From: Burkholderiales bacterium
Lineage (GTDB): Bacteria; Pseudomonadota; Gammaproteobacteria; Burkholderiales; Ga0077523
Assembly (NCBI GenBank): GCA_019747905.1
Contig: JAIEQG010000007.1
Span: 17,189-81,188, forward strand
Length of the DNA stretch: 64,000 bases
Direction: 5' to 3'
The notes under the pieces were generated by a model. The model ran no database searches. It saw nothing but the letters and a program-made list of their open reading frames with translations, and was not told the origin of the DNA. The translations under genes and the position numbers were made by a program. Numbering within the stretch: the first letter of the stretch is position 1; every line of letters begins with the position of its first letter. Below are positions 3,636 through 56,512 of the stretch, in pieces.

Positions 3636-5735
3636 ATGTACCCTCATCCTTCCGTTCGACGCGTGCTGATAGGGGCGCTTGCCGTCGCCCTCGGCGCAAC
3701 CGCCGCTGCTCCTTCGCTAGCGGAACAGATCACCATCCTCCATGTCGGTGACCAGGAATCCTGGCTGATCAGCGCGGCGGGCAGCACCCGGGACGTGGGT
3801 GGTGCGACGGACCTATCCCGTTACGGCGGCGTGGACCGACTGGCGGCTGTCATCGACCGCGAACGGGCTGCGGCAGCCGGTAGAACGGTGCTAACCTTGA
3901 ACGCTGGCGACGCCTTCCTTCCCGGAACACGGTTGAACGCCAGCTTCGCAGCATTCGGCGGCAACCCCGGCCTCGGCATCGCGCCTTCGGACTTCTACGA
4001 CGCCATCGCGATGCGCGAAATCGGCTTCACCGCCGCCGTGTTCGGCAACCATGAGTTCGATCTGCAGCCCGAAATCGCCGCGAAGTTCGCCGAGATGTCC
4101 GGAACGACCTATCTGTCATCCAATCTGAACTTTTCCGGCACGGCGAGCTTCCAGACGCTGGCCACTGCCGGCACTGTCGCTCCGACCAAGCTGGTCACTA
4201 CGGATGGCGGCCTCAAGATCGGACTGGTCGGTGCCACCACCCCCCTGCTGCCGGCGATTTCCTCCCCGGGCGCAATTTCGCTACTGGGCTTCGATCCGGG
4301 CGCATCGGAGGCGGTCAACTTGCAAAGCTTGGTGTCGATCATCCAGGTCCAGATCGACTCGCTCAGGGCAGCCGGTGCCGAGGCGATCGTGCTCATGAGC
4401 CACCTGCAGAATGCCCAGAACGAGATCGGAGTCGTCGTGCCCCAGCTCACCGGGGTCGACATCGTCCTCTCCGGCGGCGGCCACGAACTCATGAACGGCG
4501 GCACGCTGATTCCCGGAAACATTCCGTCCGGACTCACCTACCCCACGGCGGTCGACACCGCCCAGGCCGGAGTGAGAGCGCTCGTGGTGACTTCAAATTT
4601 CGGCAACCGCTATCTGGGCGAACTCAACTTCTCGCTCGACCCGACCACCGGCGAGGTACTGCGCGACGCCGCGGGGATCCCGATCCTCGAATCGGGCACT
4701 ACACAGCATCGCATCTCAGGCAACACGGCCGACACCGACGCCGTCACGCCGGATGCCACCATCCAGGCCAACGTCGTAGCGCCGGTACTGGCGTTTGTCG
4801 CGGCACAGAACAGCACGATCGTCGGCACTTCGGAAGTACAGCTCGGACCCGCTTCGGGCAGCGTGAACGGCACACCGGGGACCCCGGGCTCCTTCGTCGC
4901 TGGTGTTCGCAATTCCGAGTCGAATCTCGGCAACCTCTCGTCCGATGCCTTGCGCTGGGCCACAGGGACCACTGTCGCCTTCCAGAATGGCGGCGGCATC
5001 CGCGCGTCGATCAACGACGGCGAGGTAACGTTGGGTGAAGTAAACACGACTCTCGCTTTCGCCAATCTGGTGGTGAGCATTCCCGACGTGAATGCGGGGC
5101 AGCTCAAGCAACTGCTTGAATGGGGCCTCGCTACCGCCTCGCCTTCAGGAGCCGTGAACGGCCGCTTCCCGCAAATCTCGGGCATGTCCGTCTACTACGA
5201 CAGCGAGAACGTGGCGGCGAACCTGTTCTACAACCCCGACGGGTCGTTCAATACGGCGGCGGCCGGGTTCAACTTCGGCGATCGCGTGAAACGCATCGTA
5301 CTCGACGACGGCACCGTACTGGTCGACGGCGGTGTGGTCGTCGACGCCACGACGACGTTCTCGCTGGGCACGATCGACTTTCTGGCGCGCGAGAATCCGG
5401 GCACGCCCGGGCGCGGCGGCGATGCATACCCCTTCGCCGCACTCGGCATCGACTCGTTCGAGAATCCTGCCGTGTCCCGGCTCTACGGCGAGGCATTGCA
5501 AGCTTACATCGAAGCCGATACCACAGACGGTGGTCTGGGAGGCGTCGTGAGTGCCGCCCGCTATCCGATCGACAATCCTTTGACCTATCAGGGACGGATG
5601 GTCGACATGGCTATTGCAGTGCCCGAACCGTCGACCTACGCGATGATGATAGGTGGTCTGGCGTTGATCGGCACGTTGGCGCGGCGCCGGAGCTTCGACG
5701 CAGGCAATCGCCCGCCCAACACCATGAGGCTGTAA
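3636..5735 (+). CDS. Secreted bifunctional metallophosphatase/5'-nucleotidase-family protein with C-terminal PEP-CTERM sorting signal
   Basis: Signal peptide; calcineurin-like motifs (HVGDQES, NAGDAF, GNHEFD, SHL, GGGHE). The C-terminus 'VPEPSTYAMMIGGLALIGTLARRR' has PEP motif, TM helix and Arg cluster. Confidence 0.8.
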   Translation: MYPHPSVRRVLIGALAVALGATAAAPSLAEQITILHVGDQESWLISAAGSTRDVGGATDLSRYGGVDRLAAVIDRERAAAAGRTVLTLNAGDAFLPGTRLNASFAAFGGNPGLGIAPSDFYDAIAMREIGFTAAVFGNHEFDLQPEIAAKFAEMSGTTYLSSNLNFSGTASFQTLATAGTVAPTKLVTTDGGLKIGLVGATTPLLPAISSPGAISLLGFDPGASEAVNLQSLVSIIQVQIDSLRAAGAEAIVLMSHLQNAQNEIGVVVPQLTGVDIVLSGGGHELMNGGTLIPGNIPSGLTYPTAVDTAQAGVRALVVTSNFGNRYLGELNFSLDPTTGEVLRDAAGIPILESGTTQHRISGNTADTDAVTPDATIQANVVAPVLAFVAAQNSTIVGTSEVQLGPASGSVNGTPGTPGSFVAGVRNSESNLGNLSSDALRWATGTTVAFQNGGGIRASINDGEVTLGEVNTTLAFANLVVSIPDVNAGQLKQLLEWGLATASPSGAVNGRFPQISGMSVYYDSENVAANLFYNPDGSFNTAAAGFNFGDRVKRIVLDDGTVLVDGGVVVDATTTFSLGTIDFLARENPGTPGRGGDAYPFAALGIDSFENPAVSRLYGEALQAYIEADTTDGGLGGVVSAARYPIDNPLTYQGRMVDMAIAVPEPSTYAMMIGGLALIGTLARRRSFDAGNRPPNTMRL

Positions 5736-5819: not shown

Positions 5820-6665
5820 ATGCCCGCGTTCGAGCGTCTGGAACTGCACGCAGTACCGGCAACCCGTCTGACGGCCCCGGATGGTGCGACTGCGCTCGTC
5901 ACCGACCGCGGCGCCCAAGTGCTCTCGTGGATACCGGCGGGCGGCGACGAACGCCTGTACCTGTCGGAAACCGCGGTCTATGCCCCCGACACACCGATCC
6001 GCGGCGGCGTTCCGGTAATCTTTCCGCAGTTCGGCACCCTCGGGGCGCTCGCGCGGCACGGCTTCGCGCGGACGGCCTCATGGACTCTCGACGAGAGCCG
6101 GGCCGGTGCCGACTACGCGCTGGCGACGTGGTGTCTCGACAGCAACCCGGCGACCCGTGCAATCTGGCCCCATGAGTTCCGCGCCGAACTGACCGTGAGC
6201 GTGGGTGGCAATCAACTGGACGTGGAACTCGCGATCGAGAATACCGGCACCGAGCCGTTCGAATTCACGGCGGCGCTGCACTCCTATCTGCGCGTGCGCG
6301 AGGTCGAGCATGCAAAGCTCACGGGGCTCGAGCACACGGAGTTCCGCGATCAACTCGCCGGCGGCGAAGTTCGTACCGAAGCGCGTGAGACGCTGAGCTT
6401 CGACGGGCCGATCGATCGCATCCATCTCGACGTGCCGCCGCGACTGGTCTTGAGCGAATCCGGGCGCCAGTTGCTCATCGAATCGAGCGGGTTCCCCGAC
6501 GTGGTGATATGGAATCCCTGGGACACCGGGTCCGCGGCATTCAAGGACCTGCCACCCCTCGGGTTTCGCCGCATGCTGTGCGTCGAAGCGGCGGCGATCG
6601 GCTCTCCCGTGACCGTGAAACCGGGCCTGGTGTGGGCAGGGCGACAGACGCTGGTGGCGATGTAG
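5820..6665 (+). CDS. D-hexose-6-phosphate mutarotase (aldose 1-epimerase family, YeaD-like)
   Basis: 281 aa. 'PIRGGVPVIFPQFG' and 'HGFAR...W' motifs and the length are typical of glucose-6-phosphate 1-epimerase. Confidence 0.85.
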   Translation: MPAFERLELHAVPATRLTAPDGATALVTDRGAQVLSWIPAGGDERLYLSETAVYAPDTPIRGGVPVIFPQFGTLGALARHGFARTASWTLDESRAGADYALATWCLDSNPATRAIWPHEFRAELTVSVGGNQLDVELAIENTGTEPFEFTAALHSYLRVREVEHAKLTGLEHTEFRDQLAGGEVRTEARETLSFDGPIDRIHLDVPPRLVLSESGRQLLIESSGFPDVVIWNPWDTGSAAFKDLPPLGFRRMLCVEAAAIGSPVTVKPGLVWAGRQTLVAM

Positions 6666-6835
6666 CGCATATTGAAACGACCCCCAGGCTCACTACGGTC
6701 GCTGCCCCTCCGAGGGGGCGCGTCAGTGTCTTGGGGCGTCCCAGCGACACTCAACTCACGGTTTATTGGGAGAAGGCCCGTGCGACCCGGCTGCGCCGGC
6801 CGCTGGCCCATCGCGATGACAATCACCGCACTGAC

Positions 6836-8107
6836 ATGTCCCGCCTGCTGACCTTTGTCCCGCCCCGACCGAAGCGCTGGATGATCGGCGCCCTCACGCC
6901 CGTGAGCCGCGGCGTGTTCCTGCGCGGCCTGATGCGGGTGCACGAGATCGATTTCCCGGCGGCGGATGAAGCGCGCTTCCGGGCGCACGTGAACGCGGAC
7001 ACCGCGGCATTCATCGCGCCGAACCATCCCGAGTTCCTCACCGACTGGCTGCTCGACAAGGAGCTGTCGGCGCGCCACGCACCGCTGATGGCGAGCTGGG
7101 CGACCCACGACGTGGTGAACGGCATGGGTGCGGCACTGCAGTGGTTCTGGTTGAGCAACAACCTCATTGCGCAGATTCCCGGCGCCGGCGGTGCCGCCGG
7201 CAAGGAATACTCGATCGAGTGGGCGCTGGAGGGCCACGCCGTGCTGCTGCATCCCGAGGGCAGCGTGGCCTGGACCGCGGATCGCGTGCAACCGCTGTTC
7301 GGCGGCGTCGCGGACATGGCGATCGAAGCGGCCCGGCGCGCCCCGGCCGCGGCCGCAGCCCGACCCGTGTACATGGTTCCGGTCGTCTGGTGCTACCGGT
7401 TCACCAGCGACGTCCACGCGGCCCTCGCCCGCGAGCTCGATCGGGCGGAACACAAGCTCGGCCACCGCACGCGCCGCGACGCGACGCCAGCCGAGCGCGT
7501 ACTCGACCTCTACACGGCCATACTGGAACGGGATGAGCGCCGTTGGCAGCTGCCTTCAATGCCGGACGAACCGTTCGCAGCGCGGCAGGCGTCCCTGCTG
7601 ATGGCACTGACCGCCCGCCTCCATGCGCAACTCGATGCTGCAGGGTTCGAAGCGCCGGACTCGAACGCCGAAGACGTATTCGGCCGCGGACGAAGCGCGC
7701 TGCGCCGTGCCGAGCATTGGATGCGCCACGCAGCATCGCAGACTTCCCCCATGCGCGAGGAAGTCCGGGCCGCGGCGAAGACCTTGCGCCGCGCGATGCG
7801 GATGGACCCAGCCTGGTACCGTTCACCGCAGCTCACGCAGGAACAGGTGGCCGAGAACCTGCAGCGCCTGCGCACCGATTATTGCTTCACCGGATGGCGC
7901 GACAACTTGCACCGCTTCGTGCCGCGGCCGGTGGGCCCGCGGATCGCGCACATCCGCGTGCCGCAGCCGATCCAAGTCACCGGTATCGACGCGGCCGACG
8001 CGCTGCTCCTCGAACTGCGTCAGCGCATGCAGGGAACCCTCGACGACCTGGCTGCGCAGCAGCTCAGCACCACGGGGGCACGGGCCTACCCGAACCCCTT
8101 TCGTTGA
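6836..8107 (+). CDS. PlsC-like acyltransferase-family protein with long helical C-terminal extension
   Basis: ATG at 6836 avoids overlap with the upstream gene. 'APNHPEFLTDW' (H-x5-D, one residue longer than the canonical HX4D) and 'LLHPEGSVAW' resemble acyltransferase blocks I and III. The family call is tentative. Confidence 0.5.
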   Translation: MSRLLTFVPPRPKRWMIGALTPVSRGVFLRGLMRVHEIDFPAADEARFRAHVNADTAAFIAPNHPEFLTDWLLDKELSARHAPLMASWATHDVVNGMGAALQWFWLSNNLIAQIPGAGGAAGKEYSIEWALEGHAVLLHPEGSVAWTADRVQPLFGGVADMAIEAARRAPAAAAARPVYMVPVVWCYRFTSDVHAALARELDRAEHKLGHRTRRDATPAERVLDLYTAILERDERRWQLPSMPDEPFAARQASLLMALTARLHAQLDAAGFEAPDSNAEDVFGRGRSALRRAEHWMRHAASQTSPMREEVRAAAKTLRRAMRMDPAWYRSPQLTQEQVAENLQRLRTDYCFTGWRDNLHRFVPRPVGPRIAHIRVPQPIQVTGIDAADALLLELRQRMQGTLDDLAAQQLSTTGARAYPNPFR

Positions 8108-39610: not shown

Positions 39611-40801
39611 TCAAGGATCCCGCGCGCAGCGAAACCCGATGTCCTCGGCGCGCAGTTCCGGGGCGCCATACGAACGCCGCGCCGAATTCATGCGCTCCGC
39701 CGGCTCGAAGCGGCCGCCGCCGCGAATCACTTTCGACGTACCCGAAGCGGGCCCTTGCGGATTGCGGCGCTCGCCCACCGGGAAACCCTCCGCGTACCAA
39801 TCCGCCGTCCACTCGGCGACGTTGCCGGCCATGTCGTGCGCGCCGTAGGGACTGCGTCCCGCAGGGTGGCTGCCCACCTTGTCGAGCCCGCCGGAATAGG
39901 CCTCGGGGGATGCGTTCTGGAAGTTCAGCCGGTCCGCCATCGGCCGGTCGTTGCCCCACGGAAACCGCCGCTCGTCCGTGCCACGCGCCGCCTTCTCCCA
40001 TTCCGACTCCGTGGGCAATCGTCGCCCTGCCCACTTGCAGTACGCACTGGCGTCGTTCCAGTCCACACCGCCCACGGGCAGCTCATCGCCGCGGGCGAGG
40101 TCCAATGCTTCCCATCCTTCCGGGGGATGAGACGAGCCCGTCGCCGCGAGAAACTTCGCATATCGCCCGGTCGTGACCTCCAGGCCGTCGATGTAGAACG
40201 CGTCGAGGAATACCTCGCGCTTCGGTGACTCCTCGTCGTCGCCCATGACGAAGGTGCCGGCCGGCACCAGCACGAGCGGCGCACCGTCCCTGCCGGTCAG
40301 TTCGGTCGGAGCCTCGCGGGTCGCGAGGGTCCACCACACACCTCCCGCCACGACGAGGGCGACGACGACTCCGACGCCTGCCTTGATCAGCAGCGCACGC
40401 CGGCGTTTCAGATCGATGCGATGCACGGCATCGGCCACCGCGGCAGCGATGTTGCCCGGGGACTCCAGCAGGGTCACCGACTTCACGAACGCCGGCAGAC
40501 GATCGAAGGCCGTCGGGCGCAGCAGCACGGGCAACAGCCTGCCGGAGGCCTGCCGCAGCTTCTTCTCGGCAATCTCGAGCTCGTTCAGCGTGTAGCTGCC
40601 CGGATCGATGGCCTCTTCGCTCACCAGGAAGACGAACAGGTCCGCCTGCTCGATCGCCCGGCGGATGCGGATGTGAAACTCCTCCCCTGCCGGCAGATCC
40701 TCGCGATCGAAGAAGACATCATGGCCCTGGTCGAGCAGGGCACGGTTGATGGCCTCGGCGATCGGGCGATCCTGCGAGGCATAACTCAGGAAGATCTTCA
40801 T
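39611..40801 (-). CDS. TIR domain - single TM helix - FGE-sulfatase (SUMF1-like) domain protein
   Basis: Start at ATG 40801 (ATGA overlap with the upstream gene). TIR: 'KIFLSYASQD...VFFDREDLPAGEEF...DLFVFLVSEEAIDPGSYTLNELEIA'. TM about aa 136-159, preceded by KRRR. FGE domain: 'VGGVDWNDASAYCKWAGRRLPTESEWEKAARG...GNVAEWT...IRGGGRF'. Confidence 0.85.
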   Translation of the reverse strand: MKIFLSYASQDRPIAEAINRALLDQGHDVFFDREDLPAGEEFHIRIRRAIEQADLFVFLVSEEAIDPGSYTLNELEIAEKKLRQASGRLLPVLLRPTAFDRLPAFVKSVTLLESPGNIAAAVADAVHRIDLKRRRALLIKAGVGVVVALVVAGGVWWTLATREAPTELTGRDGAPLVLVPAGTFVMGDDEESPKREVFLDAFYIDGLEVTTGRYAKFLAATGSSHPPEGWEALDLARGDELPVGGVDWNDASAYCKWAGRRLPTESEWEKAARGTDERRFPWGNDRPMADRLNFQNASPEAYSGGLDKVGSHPAGRSPYGAHDMAGNVAEWTADWYAEGFPVGERRNPQGPASGTSKVIRGGGRFEPAERMNSARRSYGAPELRAEDIGFRCARDP

Positions 40802-41241
40802 GCCGCGGGAGCGGCCACCCTCTGCTCCGCGCGCCACGCGCTCAAGGTCCACAGGAAGCTCGCGAAATCCTGCACCGCGAACGCAGCCGCGAGCTGCCAC
40901 GGCAGGATGCCGGTCAACCAGAGCACCAGCATCGCCGGCGGAACCAGCGGCCGGTCGAGCAGGGAGGCGAACACGAAGCCCTGCGCGTTGAGCCGGCCGG
41001 CCGCCACGTAGAGCATGCCCAGTCCGCCGACGAGCAGGCCGACGAGGCGGAAGTAGTTCTCAGCCTGCTCGACCATCTCCGGCAGGTGCAGCAGCTTCAC
41101 CGCGAGCTGCGGGGCGAACACGATGCCCACGCTCTCCGCGAGGATCAGCCAGCCGAACACTTCGACGGTCTTCGCGGAACGGCCCTGACCCTCCGCGGCG
41201 AACAAACGACGGAACATCTCCCCGAAGGACGGTGCATTCAT
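40798..41241 (-). CDS. Small integral membrane protein (147 aa), unknown family
   Basis: Start at ATG 41241 (ATGA overlap with the methyltransferase stop). About 4 hydrophobic segments. Its stop overlaps the TIR gene start. Confidence 0.6.
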   Translation of the reverse strand: MNAPSFGEMFRRLFAAEGQGRSAKTVEVFGWLILAESVGIVFAPQLAVKLLHLPEMVEQAENYFRLVGLLVGGLGMLYVAAGRLNAQGFVFASLLDRPLVPPAMLVLWLTGILPWQLAAAFAVQDFASFLWTLSAWRAEQRVAAPAA

Positions 41242-42062
41242 GTTCGTCTCCGTGCGATGTAACTGTAGAAATTGCAGGCCCCGAAGAAGACGCCGCGATC
41301 CGACCGGCGCAGCACTTCCTCCGCCCACGCCACCGCCTCGTCCTCCGTGGCGGCCCCGGCTTTCGGCAGCAGCTTCATGAAGGACTGGATTCCCGGTTTC
41401 CAGAAATCGGCGGCACCCACTTCGGCCAGCACATACGACCAGGACGAAACCAGGTCCACTTTCGCATCTCGCAGCCTCTGCGGCATCTCGCGCATCACCC
41501 GCGGATTGGTCACGATGGCCGCGATGATGGCCTCGTCCATGGCACGGCCGCGCGCGGGATCGTCGGTGCCGAAGGTGATCGAGGCATAGTCGCCGTCGAA
41601 GATGCCGATCATGCCGCCGGGCTTGACCACGCGGGCCAGCTCTTCGATCACGGCCTGCGGGTCGTCCACGTGGCTGATCAGCGTGTGCGCGATCACCGCG
41701 TCGAACGCGGCGTCCGGAAGCTTGAGGCTCTGCGAGTCGCCGGCCCGGAAATCCACCTTCGCAGCCAGCCCCTCGGACCGGGCAAGCCGTTGCGCGGCAT
41801 GGATCAGCGACGGGCTGAGATCGATGCCGGTGACGTGCCCCTTGAACGCGGGTCGCCGCGCGACTGTTCGGGCTACCACGCCCGTACCGCAACCGACGTC
41901 GAGCACGGTGCCCGCCCCGTCGATGCCCATGCCGTCGAGGTACTCGCCCATCATGTGCAGGAACTTCGGATGGCGCCCGCGCGCCTCGAGACGCGCTTCG
42001 AGCACGCCCAGAGTGTCGCCGTCCAGTTGATCGGTGATGCGATAGACGTCGACGGCAGCCAT
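41238..42062 (-). CDS. Class I SAM-dependent methyltransferase
   Basis: Start at ATG 42062. Motif I 'VLDVGCGTGVVAR'; post-I 'VTGIDLS'; 'VVKPGGMIGIFD'. Confidence 0.85.
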   Translation of the reverse strand: MAAVDVYRITDQLDGDTLGVLEARLEARGRHPKFLHMMGEYLDGMGIDGAGTVLDVGCGTGVVARTVARRPAFKGHVTGIDLSPSLIHAAQRLARSEGLAAKVDFRAGDSQSLKLPDAAFDAVIAHTLISHVDDPQAVIEELARVVKPGGMIGIFDGDYASITFGTDDPARGRAMDEAIIAAIVTNPRVMREMPQRLRDAKVDLVSSWSYVLAEVGAADFWKPGIQSFMKLLPKAGAATEDEAVAWAEEVLRRSDRGVFFGACNFYSYIARRRT

Positions 42063-42091
42063 GCGTTTCCTCTCGAAATCGAAACAGCGGA

Positions 42092-42556
42092 CTATCTGGG
42101 CGTGACCGCCGCGATGCACTCCACTTCCACGCGCGCACCCAGCGCCAGACCATTGGCGCCGAGCGCACTGCGTGCCGGAAACGGAGGCGCGAAGAACGTG
42201 CGGTAGACCTCGTTGAACGCCGCCCACTCGCTGATGTCGGCCAGCATCACGGTGCACTTCACCACGTCGCGCATCGTATGGCCGTTGGCCTCGAGCGAAG
42301 CCTTGATGTTCTCCATGGTCTGTCGGGCTTCTTCCTTCATGCCTCCGGGCACCAGCTTCATCGTGCCCGGTGCGATGCCCACCTGGCCGGAGAGGTACAC
42401 GGTGTTGCCCACGCGGACCGCCTCGGAGAACGGCAGCGTGGTGGGCAGCACCCTGCCCGAGTTGTAGTACTCGATCGGCGCGGAGTCCGCAGCGAATACG
42501 GAACCGGCAACACAAAGGCAGGCGCTGGTCAGCGCGATCGTGCAGAGCAGTCTCAT
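42092..42556 (-). CDS. RidA/YjgF-family protein with N-terminal signal peptide
   Basis: 154 aa. 'MRLLCTIALTSACLCVAGSVFA' looks like a cleavable signal. The RidA core is 'VYLSGQVG...NIKASLEANGHTMRDVVKCTVML...ARSALGANGLALGARVEVE'. GAGGAG RBS. Confidence 0.88.
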   Translation of the reverse strand: MRLLCTIALTSACLCVAGSVFAADSAPIEYYNSGRVLPTTLPFSEAVRVGNTVYLSGQVGIAPGTMKLVPGGMKEEARQTMENIKASLEANGHTMRDVVKCTVMLADISEWAAFNEVYRTFFAPPFPARSALGANGLALGARVEVECIAAVTPR

Positions 42557-42585
42557 CGAATCGTCTCCTCGGACGGTGAATCGCC

Positions 42586-43773
42586 TCAGGCTTGCGTGGC
42601 AAACGGCCCGAAGTCGGCCAGGCGCACGTGGCGCTGCGCGTAGGCCGCGCCCACGCGCTGGATGTTGGGGATGTGCTTGATCGAATCCATCTCCTGCATG
42701 GTCGCCGGATCGATGTCGCCGAGACCCAGCGCATTGAGACCGGCGTGGGTCACATCCGGGTCATAGCGCAGGTAGGTGAACAGTTTCGGTCCGGTCCAGT
42801 TGGCCCTGCCATCGACGGTCCCGACCATCGCCCCGTACTCGCGGTCGATCTCGGCCCCGAAGCGGCAATCGCCGAGCATCCTGCAGGTCATGTCCCAGCC
42901 GGCCGAGGCGGCGTTCATCAAGGCGCCGGGAATGCTCGTCGCATGATGGAGGATATTCATGTCGTCGGCTTCGAGCTTCGGGCGGGCCTTCGGTGCACTG
43001 CCGGTCCCGACTGAGACGATCAACAGCTGGTCCGTACCAGTACGCCAGTTCAGCCGATACGGCGCCGCGGTCGCCATCTGGAACGCCAGGTAGGCGGGGT
43101 TGTTGTAGGTGGTGACGCCACCGTCCACGAAGATGAACGAATACTCCTTCGGCGAACCCTCCCCGAAGGTCACCACTTCGGGCGGAAAGAACGTGGGCGC
43201 GGCGGTACTGGCGCGCACGAGCTGCCACAGCGGCAGGTCCAGGTTGCAGTCGCCTCGAGCGCGCTGGTTGTACTTCGCGGCCGGGTTGTTCCACACCGGC
43301 CAGGGCGAATCGGTCGTGTGGTTGCGCATGACCATCATCAACAAGGTCCTCAGCCGATCGCTGCCCAGCGGCGCATTCGGATACCTGGCGCTCGGCTGGT
43401 GTCCGAGGGCACGATCCAGTTCGGCGCGCAGCTTCTTCGCCAGCGGTTCGTCATTGTAGGTGTAGCGCAGGCGCTTGAACAGCGACGCCTTGTCGAACAT
43501 GTCGCGGCCGCTGCCCACGTAGAACTCGCGCATCTGATCCATGGACATGCCCGACGCGATGCACGCGGCGATGATCGCGCCGGTGCTGGTGCCGCACACA
43601 AAATCGAACCAGTCGGCCAGCACCAGGTCCGGCTTGCCGTGCTGTTTGCGCAGGTCGGCCTCGAGCTTCGCCAGGACCTCGGTGCTCATCAAGCCCAGGA
43701 TCCCGCCGCCGTCGCAGGCCAGGATCTTCTTGGGACCGTTCGGGGCCAGCTTCTCGGCCAGAGATCTCGTCAT
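42586..43773 (-). CDS. Patatin-like phospholipase
   Basis: 395 aa. Oxyanion 'CDGGGILG', nucleophile elbow 'GTSTG', catalytic Asp 'FVDGGV'. GAGGAG RBS. 34 nt downstream of the preceding gene. Confidence 0.9.
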   Translation of the reverse strand: MTRSLAEKLAPNGPKKILACDGGGILGLMSTEVLAKLEADLRKQHGKPDLVLADWFDFVCGTSTGAIIAACIASGMSMDQMREFYVGSGRDMFDKASLFKRLRYTYNDEPLAKKLRAELDRALGHQPSARYPNAPLGSDRLRTLLMMVMRNHTTDSPWPVWNNPAAKYNQRARGDCNLDLPLWQLVRASTAAPTFFPPEVVTFGEGSPKEYSFIFVDGGVTTYNNPAYLAFQMATAAPYRLNWRTGTDQLLIVSVGTGSAPKARPKLEADDMNILHHATSIPGALMNAASAGWDMTCRMLGDCRFGAEIDREYGAMVGTVDGRANWTGPKLFTYLRYDPDVTHAGLNALGLGDIDPATMQEMDSIKHIPNIQRVGAAYAQRHVRLADFGPFATQA

Positions 43774-43807
43774 CGGGGGCTCCTCGTCGTGGCCGCGGAC
43801 GCCGCGG

Positions 43808-45763
43808 CTACCAAAGCTTGCGCGTGTCGAGCCAGGTCACCTGGCCGGTGCGGCGTTTCACTTCGTTGTACATGTGCGCCGTGCCGCCCGGGCCGTCGGA
43901 ACCGCCGCCGTCCCACAGGCTCACGAAGCGCACCTTGTCGATGCCGTGCGCGAGCGCCGTGTAGAGCAGCCACAGGTTACAGCGTTCGAAGGCATTGGCG
44001 TCCTTCGGCAAGGGACCCAGATCGTCCGGCATGATGCGCAGCGCGTCCTGCAGTTTCGCCTTCACGGCGAAATAGCGTTGCCGCCAGGACTCGCCGTCCG
44101 CTGACGGCAGCACTGACCGTTCGATGAACTCCGGTTCCTCGAGGGGCATCAGCAACTGCACGCGCACGCCGCGCTCCTGGCACGCTTCGCAAAAGAGCAG
44201 GTCGCCGCCTGCGGCGCCCTGAGTCAGCGCGAGATCGCCCGCCCCCGCCCCGAGCTGGTCGAGCGCCTTCGCCATGGCCGCGGTCGCGACGGGCACCTTG
44301 CCCGCGGGGAAACGGGGCTTGGGCCGATCGGGCGCATCCACCATGTGCCCGGAGAACAGGAAGACCTGGCGCGGCACGAATGGCGGCGTGCTGCGGGCGA
44401 TCTCGCGATCGATGATGTCGAGTACGGCAGCCGTTTCATCCGGGCGGAACTCGAGATCGCGCAGCAGCGTCAGGGTCTGGCGGGTGGAGTCGAGCGCGAA
44501 CCAGTCCTTGTTGGCGGCGGCCACCGCGGTCTTGTATTCACGCAGCGCGGATTCCTTGGGATTCACCAGCAGGAACAGCTCGGCGAGGCTCGCCCGGGCC
44601 CAGTAATCCTTCGGTTTGCGCTCCTGCGCGGTGAGGCAGGCCCAGAGCACACCGCCTTGCAGATTGGTGAGCGCGGTCGCATCCACCGGCTCGCCCAGGT
44701 GCTCCTGCACCATGCGCAGCACCAGCGCGTTGACACCGGAGTAGTAGTGCGATGGGTCACGGATGAACGCGGCGTGGTAGGGATCGATCGCCTCGCGCAG
44801 CGCCGCGTCTTCTGCTGCGGCCGCCGCACGCATCTGCGCGGTCGAAGCACCCGGCTGCGCCCAGCGCTGGATCCACGAGTCCTTGTTGACGCGGCCGGCG
44901 AGCGCCCAGCACTCCGGATCCTCCGGATGGTCCTCGGTGAGGCGCCGCACCCACTCCAGCGCCTCCTCGGACCGCCCCAGGCGTCCGAGACAGATCGCCT
45001 TCTTCTCGCGCACCGCCTTGCGGGTCGGATCCACTTCCAGCACCGCGTCGAACTGCTCGAGCGCAAATTCGAACTGCTTGAGGCGCAGCAGCGTGGTGCC
45101 GGCCATGGTCTTGCCTTCGAGCCACAGTGCCCGCGTCGGCGTCTCCTCGGCCAGCACCAGGATGTCGCCGGGCCGCCCTTTCTGTCGCGCCACCTCCATG
45201 CGGCTTGCCCAACGTTCCTGCGCGTCGCTGAATTCATTGTGCTGCTCCAGCAGCAGCGTGCGCCAATCGGGTTCCTGCAAGTGCGGCAGCAACTGGTAGA
45301 CCGGACTCACCTTCCGTCCCGACCACGCCTCGAGCGTGGCCTTGGCCATCTTCGTGATGGCGCCACGGTCCGCTTCCGAGGTCGCAGGATCGGGGACCCC
45401 GTCCTTCAACCGGTAGCGCAGCTTGCGATCGGTGTAGATGTCGAAGGGTTGCGTGGCGCGCGGGCCCTGCACCAGCAACACCCCGCGCGCACGCAGCGCG
45501 TGGCGCACGCCCAACTCGTACCAGACATTCGGATTGTCCAGCGTGAGATCCGCCACCACGAGATCCGCGACCAGCAGTTCCTGGAACATGTCCATGCGGA
45601 TGTCGCCCGCGCGCTGTTCCTCGTCGGCACGGAACACGTCGAGACCAGCCGCCTCCAGGGCCGGCTTCAGCAGTTCCTCGTAGATGCGGTTGAAGTCGAT
45701 CGGCTTGCCGTCGGCGTCGGGCTTGGTGCCGAACGGCATGGCGAGGAAAGCGTGGGGTTTCAT
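43808..45763 (-). CDS. Large three-module protein: N-terminal Rossmann/TIR-like module (DUF4071/ASK-type), TPR-like helical region, C-terminal LOG/SLOG-like nucleotide-binding module
   Basis: Start taken at ATG 45763 ('MKPHAFLAMPFGTK'); the track ORF starts at a TTG 8 codons upstream. The N-terminus reads 'AMPFG...IDFNRIYEELLKPA...VVADLTLDNPNVWYELGVRHA'. The middle is helical repeats with 'GRVNKDSW'. The C-terminal ~185 aa carry 'VFLFSGH', 'TQGAAGGDLLFCEA' and 'GPGGTAHMYNE' (LOG-type PGGxGTxxE). Confidence 0.8.
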   Translation of the reverse strand: MKPHAFLAMPFGTKPDADGKPIDFNRIYEELLKPALEAAGLDVFRADEEQRAGDIRMDMFQELLVADLVVADLTLDNPNVWYELGVRHALRARGVLLVQGPRATQPFDIYTDRKLRYRLKDGVPDPATSEADRGAITKMAKATLEAWSGRKVSPVYQLLPHLQEPDWRTLLLEQHNEFSDAQERWASRMEVARQKGRPGDILVLAEETPTRALWLEGKTMAGTTLLRLKQFEFALEQFDAVLEVDPTRKAVREKKAICLGRLGRSEEALEWVRRLTEDHPEDPECWALAGRVNKDSWIQRWAQPGASTAQMRAAAAAEDAALREAIDPYHAAFIRDPSHYYSGVNALVLRMVQEHLGEPVDATALTNLQGGVLWACLTAQERKPKDYWARASLAELFLLVNPKESALREYKTAVAAANKDWFALDSTRQTLTLLRDLEFRPDETAAVLDIIDREIARSTPPFVPRQVFLFSGHMVDAPDRPKPRFPAGKVPVATAAMAKALDQLGAGAGDLALTQGAAGGDLLFCEACQERGVRVQLLMPLEEPEFIERSVLPSADGESWRQRYFAVKAKLQDALRIMPDDLGPLPKDANAFERCNLWLLYTALAHGIDKVRFVSLWDGGGSDGPGGTAHMYNEVKRRTGQVTWLDTRKLW

Positions 45764-45822
45764 GTCAATGGCGCCGGGCCGCCCCAAGCCAATTGACGCG
45801 CCCCCATGGGGCTGAGCCCGGA

Positions 45823-45852
45823 CACGTCGCAGTCCCTGCGGACTGCGACGTG
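45823..45852. repeat. Hairpin family C copy (13-bp stem) in the 5' leader of the large three-module gene
   Basis: 'cacgtcgcagtcc ctgc ggactgcgacgtg'. The core is the reverse complement of that at 2207-2234. A second hairpin, ggtcgggcc-tgca-ggcccgacc, follows at 45864-45885. Confidence 0.5.
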
Positions 45853-45977
45853 CCTGGCGAAGCGGTCGGGCCTGCAGGCCCGACCGTGGACCAGCGACCG
45901 AAGGGAGCGTGGGGGCCGTATCATTTTCGGTACGTTACCGGAGAAACGAAGTCCGACGCATACACGAACGAACGTCA

Positions 45978-46111
45978 GCCCCCATCCCAACCTTCCCCCA
46001 ACGAAGTTGGGGGAAGGAGCCGTACATCCCCTCCCCCGGCTTCGCCGGGGGAGGGCGGAGGGTGGGGGCAAGCGAAGCGCCGGCTGCGCCGGGGGAGGGT
46101 TGGGGTGGGGG
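45978..46111 (+). repeat. REP family A, about 1.5 units
   Basis: 'gcccccatcccaa ccttccccca-acgaagt-tgggggaagg ... ctcccccgg-cttc-gccgggggag ggcggagggtgggggc ... gccgggggagggttggggtgggggc'. Confidence 0.8.
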
Positions 46112-46206
46112 CCTTCCGAACGTCGTCCTCCCAGCTAAGCTGCAGCCCGAAAGAGGGCCCACGATCGGCCTTGCAGATGCAGTTCAAAGCTGCCGATTCG
46201 AGCCCA

Positions 46207-46533
46207 TCAAGCCCGCCCCACCGACGTGCGCCCGTGTTCCGCCCCCGCCACGCTCTTCAGCGCACGCGCCACCACATCCAGCGCCAGTTCCTCCTTCAGC
46301 TCGCGCGGGGCCGGCAGCATTTCCGCACGCAGGGCCAGCGCCATGGCGACGGCCTGCAACACGTCGCCGTTGGCGGCCGTGCGCCCGCCCTCCACCTGGG
46401 TGTCGAGCGCGTTCAACAGGGCGGAGAGCAGTTCCCCGACGCGCGCCGCGGAGACGGTTTCGGGATGCAGTTCGAAGGCCACGTCGATGACGGTGCCCGA
46501 GGAGGTCACGGCACGATACGGCAAGGAGGACAT
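46207..46533 (-). CDS. Hypothetical protein (108 aa)
   Basis: ATG at 46533 preceded by 'aaggagga'. Acidic and helical. No family recognised. Confidence 0.4.
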   Translation of the reverse strand: MSSLPYRAVTSSGTVIDVAFELHPETVSAARVGELLSALLNALDTQVEGGRTAANGDVLQAVAMALALRAEMLPAPRELKEELALDVVARALKSVAGAEHGRTSVGRA

Positions 46534-46665: not shown

Positions 46666-47391
46666 TCACCGCGCCGTCACTGATCGACTGTTTTCCGATG
46701 AGCGCCCGCGCGCGACTCCGCCCACGATCATCGCACCAACCAGCAGCATGACCCAGGTCTCAGGTTCGGGAACGGGGGCCGGCGCGAGATTGCCGGCGCC
46801 GTATCCCGCCACGAACGGTGCGAGGTCACCCGAGTTCGTACCGGTGCCGGCGGGAATGTCCCAGCTGACTGCCGCTCGCCGGCCGCGAGCTCCGTCATCG
46901 CCGATCGGCCACACGCTCTGGGTGAGCTTCTTGAACACGACGGCACCGTGGACCGTGCTGTCGTCGAACGAGAGCGCGGTGAAGAACGCATCGGTCATGA
47001 CGAGTTGCGCGAACGTGACCGGCCCTGCACCACCATCCTGCACCAGTTCCACCGTCACGACCGGGATGGCATCGCCCTGCAGGAGGTAGGCGTACATCGC
47101 CGGAACGCTCGCATCGAACGCCTGGACCCAGGTGAGCTCGCCCGGCTGCGGCTTGCCGACCGACGCTCCGCCACCCTTGGTCCAGCTGCTCTCCGCAGTC
47201 ACGCGCCAGGCCACGGCATCGAGTTCGATCCAGTTTTCGTACCCTTTCACCTGGCTCTCGCCGTTCACGGCCGGTTCGCCACCGGTCATGCGCATGAACG
47301 CCTGGTCCGCTCGCGCAGGTGCTGCGCCCTCGACGATGCAGAGGGCGAGCGCCAACAGGAGCGATCGATGGAACCACCGTGGCGCGTTCAT
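46666..47391 (-). CDS. Hcp-fold (T6SS tube protein-like) protein with Sec signal peptide and PEP-CTERM anchor, paralog 1
   Basis: Start at ATG 47391 (ATGA overlap with paralog 2). 'NGESQVKGYENWIELDAVAWRVTAESSWTKGGGASVGKPQPGELTWVQAFDASVPAMY' follows the Hcp pattern (GES..H...I.v.s.sWG......GGG..GK....d......D.S.P.l). The C-terminus is 'VPEPETWVMLLVGAMIVGGVARGRS'. Confidence 0.75.
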   Translation of the reverse strand: MNAPRWFHRSLLLALALCIVEGAAPARADQAFMRMTGGEPAVNGESQVKGYENWIELDAVAWRVTAESSWTKGGGASVGKPQPGELTWVQAFDASVPAMYAYLLQGDAIPVVTVELVQDGGAGPVTFAQLVMTDAFFTALSFDDSTVHGAVVFKKLTQSVWPIGDDGARGRRAAVSWDIPAGTGTNSGDLAPFVAGYGAGNLAPAPVPEPETWVMLLVGAMIVGGVARGRSSENSRSVTAR

Positions 47392-48146
47392 GACAGAGCC
47401 CGGCTGGCCGGCACCCGGTTGCGGCGCAAGGCGAAGCCGACCAGGACCAGTCCGGACACCACCATGACCCAGGTCTCGGGCTCGGGAACGGGTGCCAGGT
47501 TCGGTGCCGACAACGCAGCGAGCGCGGCACCCTTGCCTTCGAGATTGCCGGGTCCGTATCCCGCCACGAACGCAGCCAGGGCACCGTTGCTTCCGACCGT
47601 CCCCGCCGGGATATCCCAGACCACGTTGATCGGTTTGTCGCGCCCGCCGCTCGCGTCCTGCGGCCAGTAGGTCATCGAGATCTTCTTGAACACACCGGAC
47701 CCCGCCACCGAACTGCCGTTTAACGCGAGCTCGGTGAAGAAGAGGTCCTCGATGTTGAGCTGCAGGTACGTGGCCTCCCCCGCGCCGTTGCTCCGGGTGT
47801 ATTCGACCACCGCGTTCGGCACGGAGAGCCCCTTCAGCATGTACGAATACATTGCGGGAACACTGGAATCGAAACTCTGGATCCAGGAGATCGCACCCGG
47901 ATTGGGCTTGCCTACGGATGCGCCGCCGCCCTTGGTCCAGCTGCTGTCGGCCGTCACTCCCCACGAGACCGAATCGATGTCGATCCAGTTTTCGTAACCC
48001 TCGGTGGTGCTCTCGCCGACGATGCTGGTCGAACCGCCGGTGAAACGCAGGTAGTAGTCGTCCGCATGCGCAGGAATTGCGCACGCAGAAGCGATGAACG
48101 CGAATACGGCAAAGGCCGTGCCGTTGACAGTCGATGATGGCCACAT
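47388..48146 (-). CDS. Hcp-fold protein with Sec signal peptide and PEP-CTERM anchor, paralog 2
   Basis: Start at ATG 48146 (AGGAG 7 nt upstream). 'VGESTTEGYENWIDIDSVSWGVTADSSWTKGGGASVGKPNPGAISWIQSFDSSVPAMY'. C-terminus 'VPEPETWVMVVSGLVLVGFALRRNR'. Confidence 0.75.
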   Translation of the reverse strand: MWPSSTVNGTAFAVFAFIASACAIPAHADDYYLRFTGGSTSIVGESTTEGYENWIDIDSVSWGVTADSSWTKGGGASVGKPNPGAISWIQSFDSSVPAMYSYMLKGLSVPNAVVEYTRSNGAGEATYLQLNIEDLFFTELALNGSSVAGSGVFKKISMTYWPQDASGGRDKPINVVWDIPAGTVGSNGALAAFVAGYGPGNLEGKGAALAALSAPNLAPVPEPETWVMVVSGLVLVGFALRRNRVPASRALS

Positions 48147-48430
48147 GATGTTTCTCCTGGTTGACTCCGATGAGTGAGCGACACCGGGAAACGGCGGAGA
48201 TCGGGCCTGCACCGAGTCGACGGCTGATGCGCTCGGGAATGGCGGTGGCGGAATGACGATGGAATCCACCGGCCGCACGCCTGCGACGATACGCGCTCCC
48301 GGCGGCAGCGAGAACCACCGCGAGCGCGCGCCGCGTTACCTTACGGCGGCGGCCGACGGGGCCGGCTCAGCCCCGCAGGAAGGCTGGCCCCTTGTGCAAA
48401 GGGCGGCGGGGGCCCGTCCGGGCCCTGACC

Positions 48431-55606: not shown

Positions 55607-55801
55607 CATCGCGACTGCGCGCCTCGCGGTAGCACTCATCGCTACCTCCGGCGGCATCAGGGCTCGTCGCATGCTCCGCGCATAGATTCCCTCCCGTGCG
55701 GCCGGCGTCCTGGCGGATGTTCGAAGTACCGGACCGCACGCCCACCCGCGGTCCGACTCGTCCCGGACCGCCGCTGCCAGTCCACCTCGGGGAGTCCATC
55801 C

Positions 55802-56512
55802 ATGAGCAAGCCCGCTTTCGCCTCGCGCTGCACGATCCTCGCCTTCGCCGTCACCGCCGCCCTAGCCGCATCGCAACCCGCCTCCGCCGCGCTGGGCGTG
55901 GGCAACCTGACACCCGGCCACATCTTCATCACCGAAGTCATGCCCGACCCCGCGAAAGTCGCCGACACCCGCGGCGAATGGTTCGAGATCTACAACACCC
56001 GGAACGAAGACGTGAATCTCGCCAGCCTGATCGTCCGCAGCGAGGGCGGTACCGCAGGCGAGAAATACATCGTGACCACCGATGCCATCATTCCGGCGCG
56101 GGGTTTCTTCGTCTTCGGTCGCAGCACGGATACGGCGCTGAACGGCGGCTTCAACGCCAACCTCGCCTGGGGGACTGCGCTGTCACTGGGCAACACCAGC
56201 GACTACCTGCGGCTCGAGATGCCCGACGGCACCCTGCTCGCCGGGCTCGCGTGGTCGAGTTCGGTGAGTGGCGCAAGCCTCGAAGTGCACGGCGGCACCT
56301 TGCCGAGCATCGGACCCGGCGACCTTGCGGCAACACCGGTCAACCTCGTGTACGGCCTCGGCGACCGCGGTACGCCCGGCGCACTGAACAGCGTGGACTT
56401 CGGCGTGAGCGGTGTGGCCCCGGTGCCCGAACCCGGCACCTACGCGCTGCTCGCGGCGGGATTGGCAGGCATCGCCCTGCGGCAGGCACGTCGCAAGGTG
56501 GCGCTGGCGTAA
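55802..56512 (+). CDS. Lamin-tail-domain (LTD) protein with signal peptide and PEP-CTERM anchor
   Basis: 236 aa. 'IFITEVMPDPAKVADTRGEWFEIYNTRNEDVNL' is the LTD signature. C-terminus 'VPEPGTYALLAAGLAGIALRQARRK'. Confidence 0.8.
   Translation: MSKPAFASRCTILAFAVTAALAASQPASAALGVGNLTPGHIFITEVMPDPAKVADTRGEWFEIYNTRNEDVNLASLIVRSEGGTAGEKYIVTTDAIIPARGFFVFGRSTDTALNGGFNANLAWGTALSLGNTSDYLRLEMPDGTLLAGLAWSSSVSGASLEVHGGTLPSIGPGDLAATPVNLVYGLGDRGTPGALNSVDFGVSGVAPVPEPGTYALLAAGLAGIALRQARRKVALA

Follow-up and report, generated by a model that had tools for sequence, protein, structure and literature searches.

What is a protein with the fold of Hcp, the tube protein of type VI secretion systems (T6SSs), doing between a signal peptide and a PEP-CTERM tail? 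Type VI secretion is commonly diagnosed by the presence of Hcp. A pair of adjacent genes in a 64,000-nucleotide stretch of a Burkholderiales genome (contig JAIEQG010000007.1; hereafter, the window) encodes two such proteins, which we call A and B. We read A and B as proteins of uncultured biofilm Burkholderiales that appear to derive from the T6SS tube protein Hcp, are no longer part of a T6SS, and would instead be exported by the Sec pathway and sorted by an exosortase. That they are exported, exosortase-type cargo rather than T6SS parts has, in our estimate, a probability of about 0.85.

A translationally coupled gene pair encodes Hcp-fold proteins

Gene A (47388..48146, minus strand; 252 residues) extends from an ATG at 48146 to a TGA at 47388-47390, and gene B (46666..47391, minus strand; 241 residues) extends from an ATG at 47391 to a TGA at 46666-46668. 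In the open reading frame (ORF) calls on the window, the stop codon of A and the start codon of B share an ATGA overlap at 47388-47391. The two products have the same architecture (signal peptide, Hcp domain, linker and PEP-CTERM region), are 49% identical and align without a gap over the Hcp-fold domain. The two genes are thus paralogs whose translation is coupled.

The Hcp-fold domain occupies approximately residues 30-183 of both proteins. In gene A (47598..48059, minus strand) it was identified by Pfam, profile and Foldseek searches and includes a conserved loop, ADSSWTKGGGASVGKPNPG; in gene B (46843..47304, minus strand) it was identified by Pfam and by alignment to A. The Pfam model T6SS_HCP (PF05638, cut-off 23.5 bits) matched A with 69.9 bits (E 3.3e-19) and B with 63.4 bits (E 3.3e-17). 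When a family profile was compared with the sequences in the PDB, positions 25-182 paired with chain residues 20-179, the whole domain, and the matches included 4tv4 (E 2.8e-20), 8yun, 3v4h and Hcp1 of Pseudomonas aeruginosa (1y12, E 4.3e-17). An AlphaFold2 model of A had core predicted local distance difference test (pLDDT) values of 76-91, whereas confidence was low in three parts: leader, linker and the loop at 66-81. Searched with Foldseek against the PDB, the model had only Hcp proteins as its best matches, with E values of ~1e-10 to 1e-11, target template modeling (TM) scores of up to 0.88 and root-mean-square deviations of 2.0-2.8 Å. An alignment of 26 relatives has invariant and nearly invariant columns within the domain, and conservation across the family is highest in the glycine-rich loop, which contacts adjacent subunits in Hcp structures.

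An earlier, sequence-only reading of this DNA had proposed two genes coupled by ATGA, and both ORFs, on the minus strand at the coordinates that it gave, and the overlap are present. It had also placed similarity to Hcp in the N-terminal half of each product. The homology is significant in both paralogs, with PF05638 scores far above the cut-off, but it is not confined to the N-terminal half and spans the entire domain; the predicted fold of A is that of Hcp, so that the reading passes both structural checks proposed for it.

Export-type leaders and PEP-CTERM tails flank the Hcp domain

The first 28 residues of A (MWPSSTVNGTAFAVFAFIASACAIPAHA, followed by DD; 48063..48146, minus strand) are hydrophobic and end in AHA, conforming to an AxA cleavage motif. 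Those of B (MNAPRWFHRSLLLALALCIVEGAAPARA, followed by DQ; 47308..47391, minus strand) comprise a basic n-region and a hydrophobic core and end in ARA, also an AxA motif, and alignment indicated that this leader is kept in the B-type relatives P0023, P0024, P0028 and P0030. Signal peptides were called by inspection and by conservation in the 26 aligned relatives, all of which have a hydrophobic N terminus and at least 90% of which have alanine at position -1. The leaders contain neither a twin-arginine motif nor a conserved lipobox cysteine. AlphaFold2 modeled the leader of A as a helix with low pLDDT. In the family-profile alignment, the residue following the predicted cleavage site pairs with residue 2 of solved Hcps, indicating that the leader has been added exactly before an intact Hcp domain.

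C-terminal to the Hcp domain, both proteins have a low-complexity linker with a conserved LAxFVAGYGPGNL motif. The linker of A (residues 184-218; 47493..47597, minus strand), delimited by alignment and low in pLDDT, also contains a 13-residue insert specific to A-type proteins and weakly resembles other PEP-CTERM families (NF038129 and NF038126) in their C-terminal regions. The PEP-CTERM region of A (residues 219-252; 47391..47492, minus strand) consists of VPEPETW, a transmembrane helix and RRNR, and it was recognized by PF07589, TIGR02595 and a regular-expression scan; that of B (residues 206-241; 46669..46776, minus strand) consists of VPEPETW, a transmembrane helix and RGR, a weaker basic cluster than that of A. 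PF07589 (cut-off 20.7 bits) gave 30.0 bits for A and 18.4 bits, just below the cut-off, for B, and TIGR02595 (cut-off 16) gave 18.1 and 15.3 bits, respectively. VPEP is invariant, and PF05638 and PF07589 are both matched by 26 of the 26 aligned relatives.

The window contains four PEP-CTERM genes: A, B and two plus-strand genes that encode a protein with a 5'-nucleotidase C domain (3636..5735; PF07589 33.6 bits) and a protein with a lamin-tail domain (LTD; 55802..56512; PF07589 30.2 bits), both above the cut-off. An equivalent of the LTD gene is present in a syntenic contig, L001. PEP-CTERM proteins are essentially confined to genomes that encode EpsH and usually number many per genome (Haft 2006). 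The presence of two further PEP-CTERM genes in the window therefore suggests, on sequence grounds, that an exosortase system exists in this genome.

The pair is set apart from type VI tube proteins and loci

Although A and B match the broad Pfam model, both fail the TssD model TIGR03344 (23.1 bits for A and 15.7 bits for B; cut-off 58.9). No T6SS genes were found among the ~45 ORFs scanned in the window, which encode housekeeping functions (PDH E1, AcrB, Ccm, SerS, FtsK, TrxB, pyruvate carboxylase, TRAP transporters, NadE, P-II, transaldolase and others), and none were found within 8-10 kb on each side of relatives in six further genomic contexts. Close synteny aside, the neighboring genes differ among those six contexts. 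A protein threaded through the Sec translocation pathway cannot join the assembly of a cytoplasmic T6SS tube; because the topology imposed by a Sec leader conflicts with cytoplasmic assembly, we place A and B outside tube assembly. What the sequence-only reading had said of Sec signals agrees with the 28-residue AxA leader that inspection found in both proteins and across their relatives. The PEP-CTERM anchors that it had described are likewise present, as motif, helix and arginine in both proteins, with A passing both curated models and B just short of them. The absence of T6SS genes that it had reported for the window extends to all ORFs scanned, and its interpretation of the pair as an exaptation of Hcp stands at the level of sequence architecture, that is, Hcp fold, leader, tail, coupling and T6SS-free context.

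Family size, architectures and origin

When 1.84 billion cluster representatives (clusters at 50% identity) were searched with a family profile, 153 matched at E <=1e-30. A PEP-CTERM tail is present in 78 of the best 150 representatives, of which 40 are single-domain and 37 double-domain with respect to Hcp; the remaining one had no Hcp domain call. Judged by these sequences, A and B are not a one-off, as the family so delineated comprises at least ~80 clusters at 50% identity. A word-indexed search found ~30 close relatives of identical architecture. We sorted 265 collected sequences into those with a leader only (71), those with a leader and PEP-CTERM (54, plus 10 fragments), those with two Hcp domains and PEP-CTERM (2x fusions; 43), leaderless proteins (32) and those with three or more Hcp domains (46). 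Two leader-only members that were inspected are orphans, with no T6SS genes nearby. In a locus of an uncultured bacterium (L091, 8001-10046), a leader-only Hcp gene (188 residues) is followed by a gene for a 481-residue T6SS_HCP protein, with no T6SS genes nearby.

Named carriers of the family are Betaproteobacteria, namely a Methyloversatilis metagenome-assembled genome (MAG) and Burkholderiales MAGs. A scan of genome contigs likewise showed the family concentrated, among the matches listed, in Burkholderiales and other Betaproteobacteria; no close relative was among those matches, which did include the T6SS Hcp of Roseateles. SerS encoded in the window is 93% identical to SerS of a Burkholderiales MAG. 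The locus occurs in biofilter, drinking-water, biofilm and freshwater metagenomes, and the metagenome project LNFM01 contains a protein that is 90% identical; beyond its own contig, the source genome is represented only by short metagenome contigs. No NCBIfam model covers the family.

Approximately 46 proteins of 500-2164 residues contain three to six Hcp domains in tandem (e.g., P0125-P0127, P0131, P0132, P0135, P0136 and P0146). In 30 of these giants there are exactly six domains (6x) in an unbroken array, separated by linkers of ~20-25 residues, and in several giants with five domains called, a gap leaves room for a sixth that was missed; a Pfam check of 6x giants recovered six T6SS_HCP stretches in five of five proteins. 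It is possible that the 6x giants are single-chain Hcp rings, and a literature search found no paper on them. None of the giants with three or more Hcp domains has a PEP-CTERM tail. P0132 has Ig-like Big_13 domains and a serralysin-type (RTX) C terminus, P0126 has Big_13, and some giants start with the motif LExLExRxLLA.

The nearest leaderless relatives, 165-166 residues long, open directly with the Hcp fold (MAVNAF...) and terminate at WDIPAGTASPSA; over the core they are 46% identical to A, and they have in common with it the SSWTKGGGASVGKPNPG loop and the WDIPAGT end. One of them, a 166-residue protein of Roseateles saccharophilus, is encoded directly after tssC (VipB, E 3e-136), and because it directly follows this sheath gene, we consider it a working T6SS tube protein. 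Since the nearest leaderless relative is a T6SS Hcp, the secreted forms appear to be close kin of genuine Burkholderiales T6SS Hcp. The R. saccharophilus locus (L009, 9959-11873) has three consecutive Hcp-family genes after tssC (166, 182 and 280 residues), the second and third of which are divergent (29.6 and 37.5 bits on PF05638).

A-type and B-type proteins formed sister clades in a neighbor-joining tree, which is crude, unrooted and without support values and from which we did not read a direction of change. This topology suggests that the duplication predates these species. We asked whether the first domain of the 2x fusions corresponds to A and the second to B, and rejected this correspondence because A and B are sister clades; by the same token, the duplications that produced the gene pair and the 2x fusions would be independent.

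Upstream region and neighboring genes

A 284-nt non-coding 5' leader (48147..48430, minus strand) separates gene A from a transaldolase gene, and a ribosome-binding site, AGGAGA (48153-48158, minus strand), lies 6 nt before the ATG. PEP-CTERM genes often stand singly and have 5' leaders of >200 nt, which in Proteobacteria contain a promoter for sigma-54 and a site for PrsR (Haft 2006), and the length of the gene A leader fits these long 5' regions. The leader has no Rfam match, and neither a sigma-70 promoter nor a terminator was recognized in it. Between its 48147-48330 portion and positions 9766-10000 of L001, long blocks are kept, although the L001 protein is only 63% identical; examples are GGGAGCGCGTATCGTCG and CCGAGCGCA..CCGTCGACTCGGTG, and the second of these includes an inverted repeat. 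Across the 64 kb there are just two exact copies of the 11-mer CGTGCGGCCGG, at 48269-48279 (minus strand) and 55695-55705 (plus strand). Both copies are sense-oriented and ~100-130 nt upstream of PEP-CTERM genes (gene A and the LTD gene), and a second common block, TCGTCGCA(G/T)GC, is nearby. The 11-mer may be a common regulatory element, a candidate identified post hoc and statistically weak.

Pieces that fall within the Hcp-like genes (window 46854-47252 and 47951-48187) occur in three sequencing runs of unrelated organisms that we guess to be RNA; in comparisons of these runs with this 6-kb stretch, the only other matching piece lay on the conserved glnB gene. These pieces hint at abundant transcripts of a water-borne contaminant, or at DNA carry-over.

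Directly downstream of B lies a defense-like gene set on the minus strand (39611-46533), which encodes a conserved 108-residue protein of no family (46207-46533), a 659-residue protein with a TIR-like N terminus and TPR-S (43808-45787), a patatin phospholipase (42586-43773), a TIR-FGE-sulfatase fusion (39611-40900) and a methyltransferase. This set matches PADLOC models for TIR and phospholipase effectors, and no PADLOC defense model matches gene A. L001 has an additional 883-residue TIR_2/TPR gene that the window lacks. Elsewhere in the window, a 532-residue ORF (6509-8107, plus strand) with coding-like GC content at third codon positions and no Pfam match adjoins the genes for the PEP-CTERM 5'-nucleotidase and an aldose epimerase.

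A proposed route to the cell surface, and possible ring formation

By analogy with known Sec and PEP-CTERM systems, we propose that the Sec-type signal peptide would direct each unfolded product across the inner membrane and that signal peptidase I would cut after AHA in A and after ARA in B, giving a mature N terminus that coincides with the canonical start of Hcp. The C-terminal PEP-CTERM helix would then tether the protein transiently until exosortase cleaves at VPEP, upon which the ~19-kDa Hcp domain would pass to the cell surface or the exopolysaccharide matrix. There the paralogs would most likely form ring-shaped, probably mixed A/B, oligomers that serve, as other PEP-CTERM proteins do, as a structural or adhesive component of a biofilm or floc matrix.

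An Hcp ring has six subunits, and A and B probably still form rings, although the observations that argue for this are indirect. Doubling recurs in the family as coupled A/B pairs, 2x fusions and 6x giants. The model of a 2x relative, P0012, has a pLDDT of 82 and a predicted TM score (pTM) of 0.77 despite ~70 disordered residues, and its loop is ordered, suggesting that the two domains are packed in a fixed manner. In Bacteroides fragilis, the adjacent Hcp paralogs Hcp2 and Hcp3 form heterohexamers (PMC13035841). We regard the full account, including rings and a matrix role, as at most somewhat more probable than its negation, and the ring and matrix part, taken alone, as falling a little short of even odds. 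More tentatively, mixed hexameric A/B rings outside the cytoplasm might stack into sheath-less nanotubes or fibers tied to the exopolysaccharide matrix by the exosortase. The tube protein would then have been domesticated as extracellular building material, within a wider radiation of non-T6SS Hcps that might include a Sec and exosortase branch (single and 2x), a branch using Sec alone (the 71 leader-only proteins) and a branch of 6x "pre-formed rings" that in some cases also have Ig-like domains and a C terminus of the RTX type. We consider this extension doubtful, though worth stating.

Several observations weigh against export, sorting and ring formation as proposed here. The signal peptides were called by eye, and the n-region of A has no basic residue. 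The PEP-CTERM region of B is marginally under both curated cut-offs, and no exosortase was found among the ~45 Pfam-scanned ORFs of the window or, in exact protein look-ups beyond both window ends, in the ~7 kb past its end; for this last reason, the exosortase step is deduced rather than observed. The leader of gene A has no convincing sigma-54 site (GG-N10-GC/TTGC) and no recognizable PrsR site, and evidence of transcription is thin, consisting of three short contigs in the runs whose RNA origin is a guess. With respect to rings, the conserved loop is poorly resolved, with low confidence, in the monomer model of A, and Foldseek paired the 2x model solely with PDB chains of one Hcp domain and did not report on inter-domain geometry.

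Alternative explanations

The Hcp fold could have been retained as a mere beta-barrel scaffold, in which case A and B would be monomeric or otherwise non-ring adhesins that bind, for example, a polysaccharide or another ligand and are anchored or released by exosortase. Export, sorting signals and a T6SS-free context would fit this explanation equally well, family members encoded by single genes without a partner exist, and the low confidence of the inter-subunit loop in the monomer model is what a non-ring protein might show. That same loop, however, is the family's most conserved stretch and is ordered in the 2x model, in which the two domains are predicted to be a rigid unit (pTM 0.77). Moreover, 30 multi-domain giants have exactly six domains and 2x fusions are common, and because these numbers are hard to explain otherwise, we suspect a six-fold ring constraint. 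We consider a non-ring scaffold unlikely, though it deserves serious consideration. At the opposite extreme, A and B could be ordinary cytoplasmic T6SS Hcps with a wrongly assigned start codon and an effector-like extension as a tail, as the strong PF05638 match and the name "Hcp" given to relatives by public pipelines might suggest. The ATG of gene A, however, has a good ribosome-binding site, the hydrophobicity and AxA motif of the leader are conserved, the tail is a bona fide PEP-CTERM region, the TssD model is failed widely, seven loci have no T6SS neighbors, and genuine T6SS relatives begin at the Hcp fold and stop after WDIPAGTASPSA. An annotation error of this kind is highly improbable.

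Two further explanations invoke conflict rather than construction. Hcp-like rings in the periplasm or at the surface, descended from T6SS tube proteins of neighboring Burkholderiales, could act as immunity-like decoys that bind the Hcp-borne effectors or tube tips of competitors. Hcp lumens do bind effectors specifically (PMC13035841; PMC8262886), true T6SS Hcps from within the order are the nearest relatives without a leader, and the genes adjoin defense-like genes in close relatives; that neighborhood, however, is not kept in more distant family members, PEP-CTERM sorting suggests the exopolysaccharide matrix rather than immunity, and neither adjacent effector or immunity genes nor direct evidence was found. 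We regard an anti-T6SS decoy as very unlikely. The pair could also be a functional part of the adjacent defense-like set (the 108-residue, TIR-like/TPR-S, patatin and TIR-FGE genes), whose order relative to the pair is kept in L001-L003 and L094 and whose members match the PADLOC effector models mentioned above. These relatives are close, however (A-type or B-type proteins at least 63% identical), and their common gene order may therefore reflect no more than synteny, which is just as strong for the housekeeping genes upstream; distant family members occur in unrelated neighborhoods, and the 883-residue TIR/TPR gene of L001 is not in the window. Membership in a defense system thus has only a marginal probability, and export of A and B as exosortase-type cargo is the reading that we carry forward.

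Comparison with known systems

The combination of an Hcp domain with PEP-CTERM is visible in databases and has been noticed and set aside: Howard et al. (2021) removed Hcp genes carrying PF07589 before constructing an Hcp phylogeny (PMC8262886), and pipelines label such proteins "T6SS tube protein Hcp". In full-text searches of the literature that paired Hcp with PEP-CTERM or exosortase, we came across no study devoted to this architecture. Because pipelines name these proteins Hcp, genomes and metagenomes are credited with T6SS parts that they may lack. If the proteins are indeed rerouted through Sec and exosortase, they would provide a recognizable and structurally tractable passenger domain for PEP-CTERM cargo, which is mostly domainless, and with it a handle on the fate of exosortase substrates and on the matrix proteins of flocs and drinking-water biofilms. 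An extracellular, self-assembling ring or tube would, if it exists, represent a new case in which a phage-tail-like module has been recruited to a non-injection role.

The pair shares with Hcp/TssD, as represented by P. aeruginosa Hcp1 (1Y12) and the B. pseudomallei protein (4TV4), the fold, homology over a ~155-residue domain and the glycine-rich loop. The window proteins differ in having a PEP-CTERM anchor and a signal peptide that looks cleavable, and in the lack of sheath, baseplate and VgrG genes nearby in the 64-kb window. The leaderless Hcp of R. saccharophilus brings this difference into a single order, as its core is 46% identical, its SSWTKGGGASVGKPNPG loop is identical and its WDIPAGT end is the same, yet it has no leader, ends at the fold and is encoded in a T6SS cluster, whereas A and B are orphans with an added leader, linker and PEP-CTERM tail.

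With respect to the tail, the closest parallel is PepA of Zoogloea and Aquincola, a PEP-CTERM substrate that resembles A and B in its signal peptide, PEP motif, transmembrane helix and arginine cluster, and also in its long 5' leader, in having several paralogs within a genome and in its biofilm or floc habitat. The PepA model NF033554 gave 16.2 bits for A and 18.1 bits for B, below its cut-off of 80. In Aquincola, PepA is involved in floc formation, and its overexpression in an rpoN1 mutant shifts exopolysaccharide from the soluble to the bound form (PMC9850573); a surface or matrix role for A and B is suggested by analogy. What distinguishes the window proteins is their passenger, an Hcp fold, whereas most PEP-CTERM proteins have no recognizable domain.

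Two systems within type VI secretion offer partial parallels for the pairing and for the C-terminal extension. Specialized Hcps, like A and B, carry an extension after the Hcp domain, but theirs is a toxin delivered by the T6SS (PMC8262886). The Hcp2-Hcp3 proteins of B. fragilis, like A and B, are adjacent paralogs that occur as a pair, although they are cytoplasmic, effector-carrying T6SS components; they provide a precedent for the mixed rings that we hypothesize for the window pair (PMC13035841).

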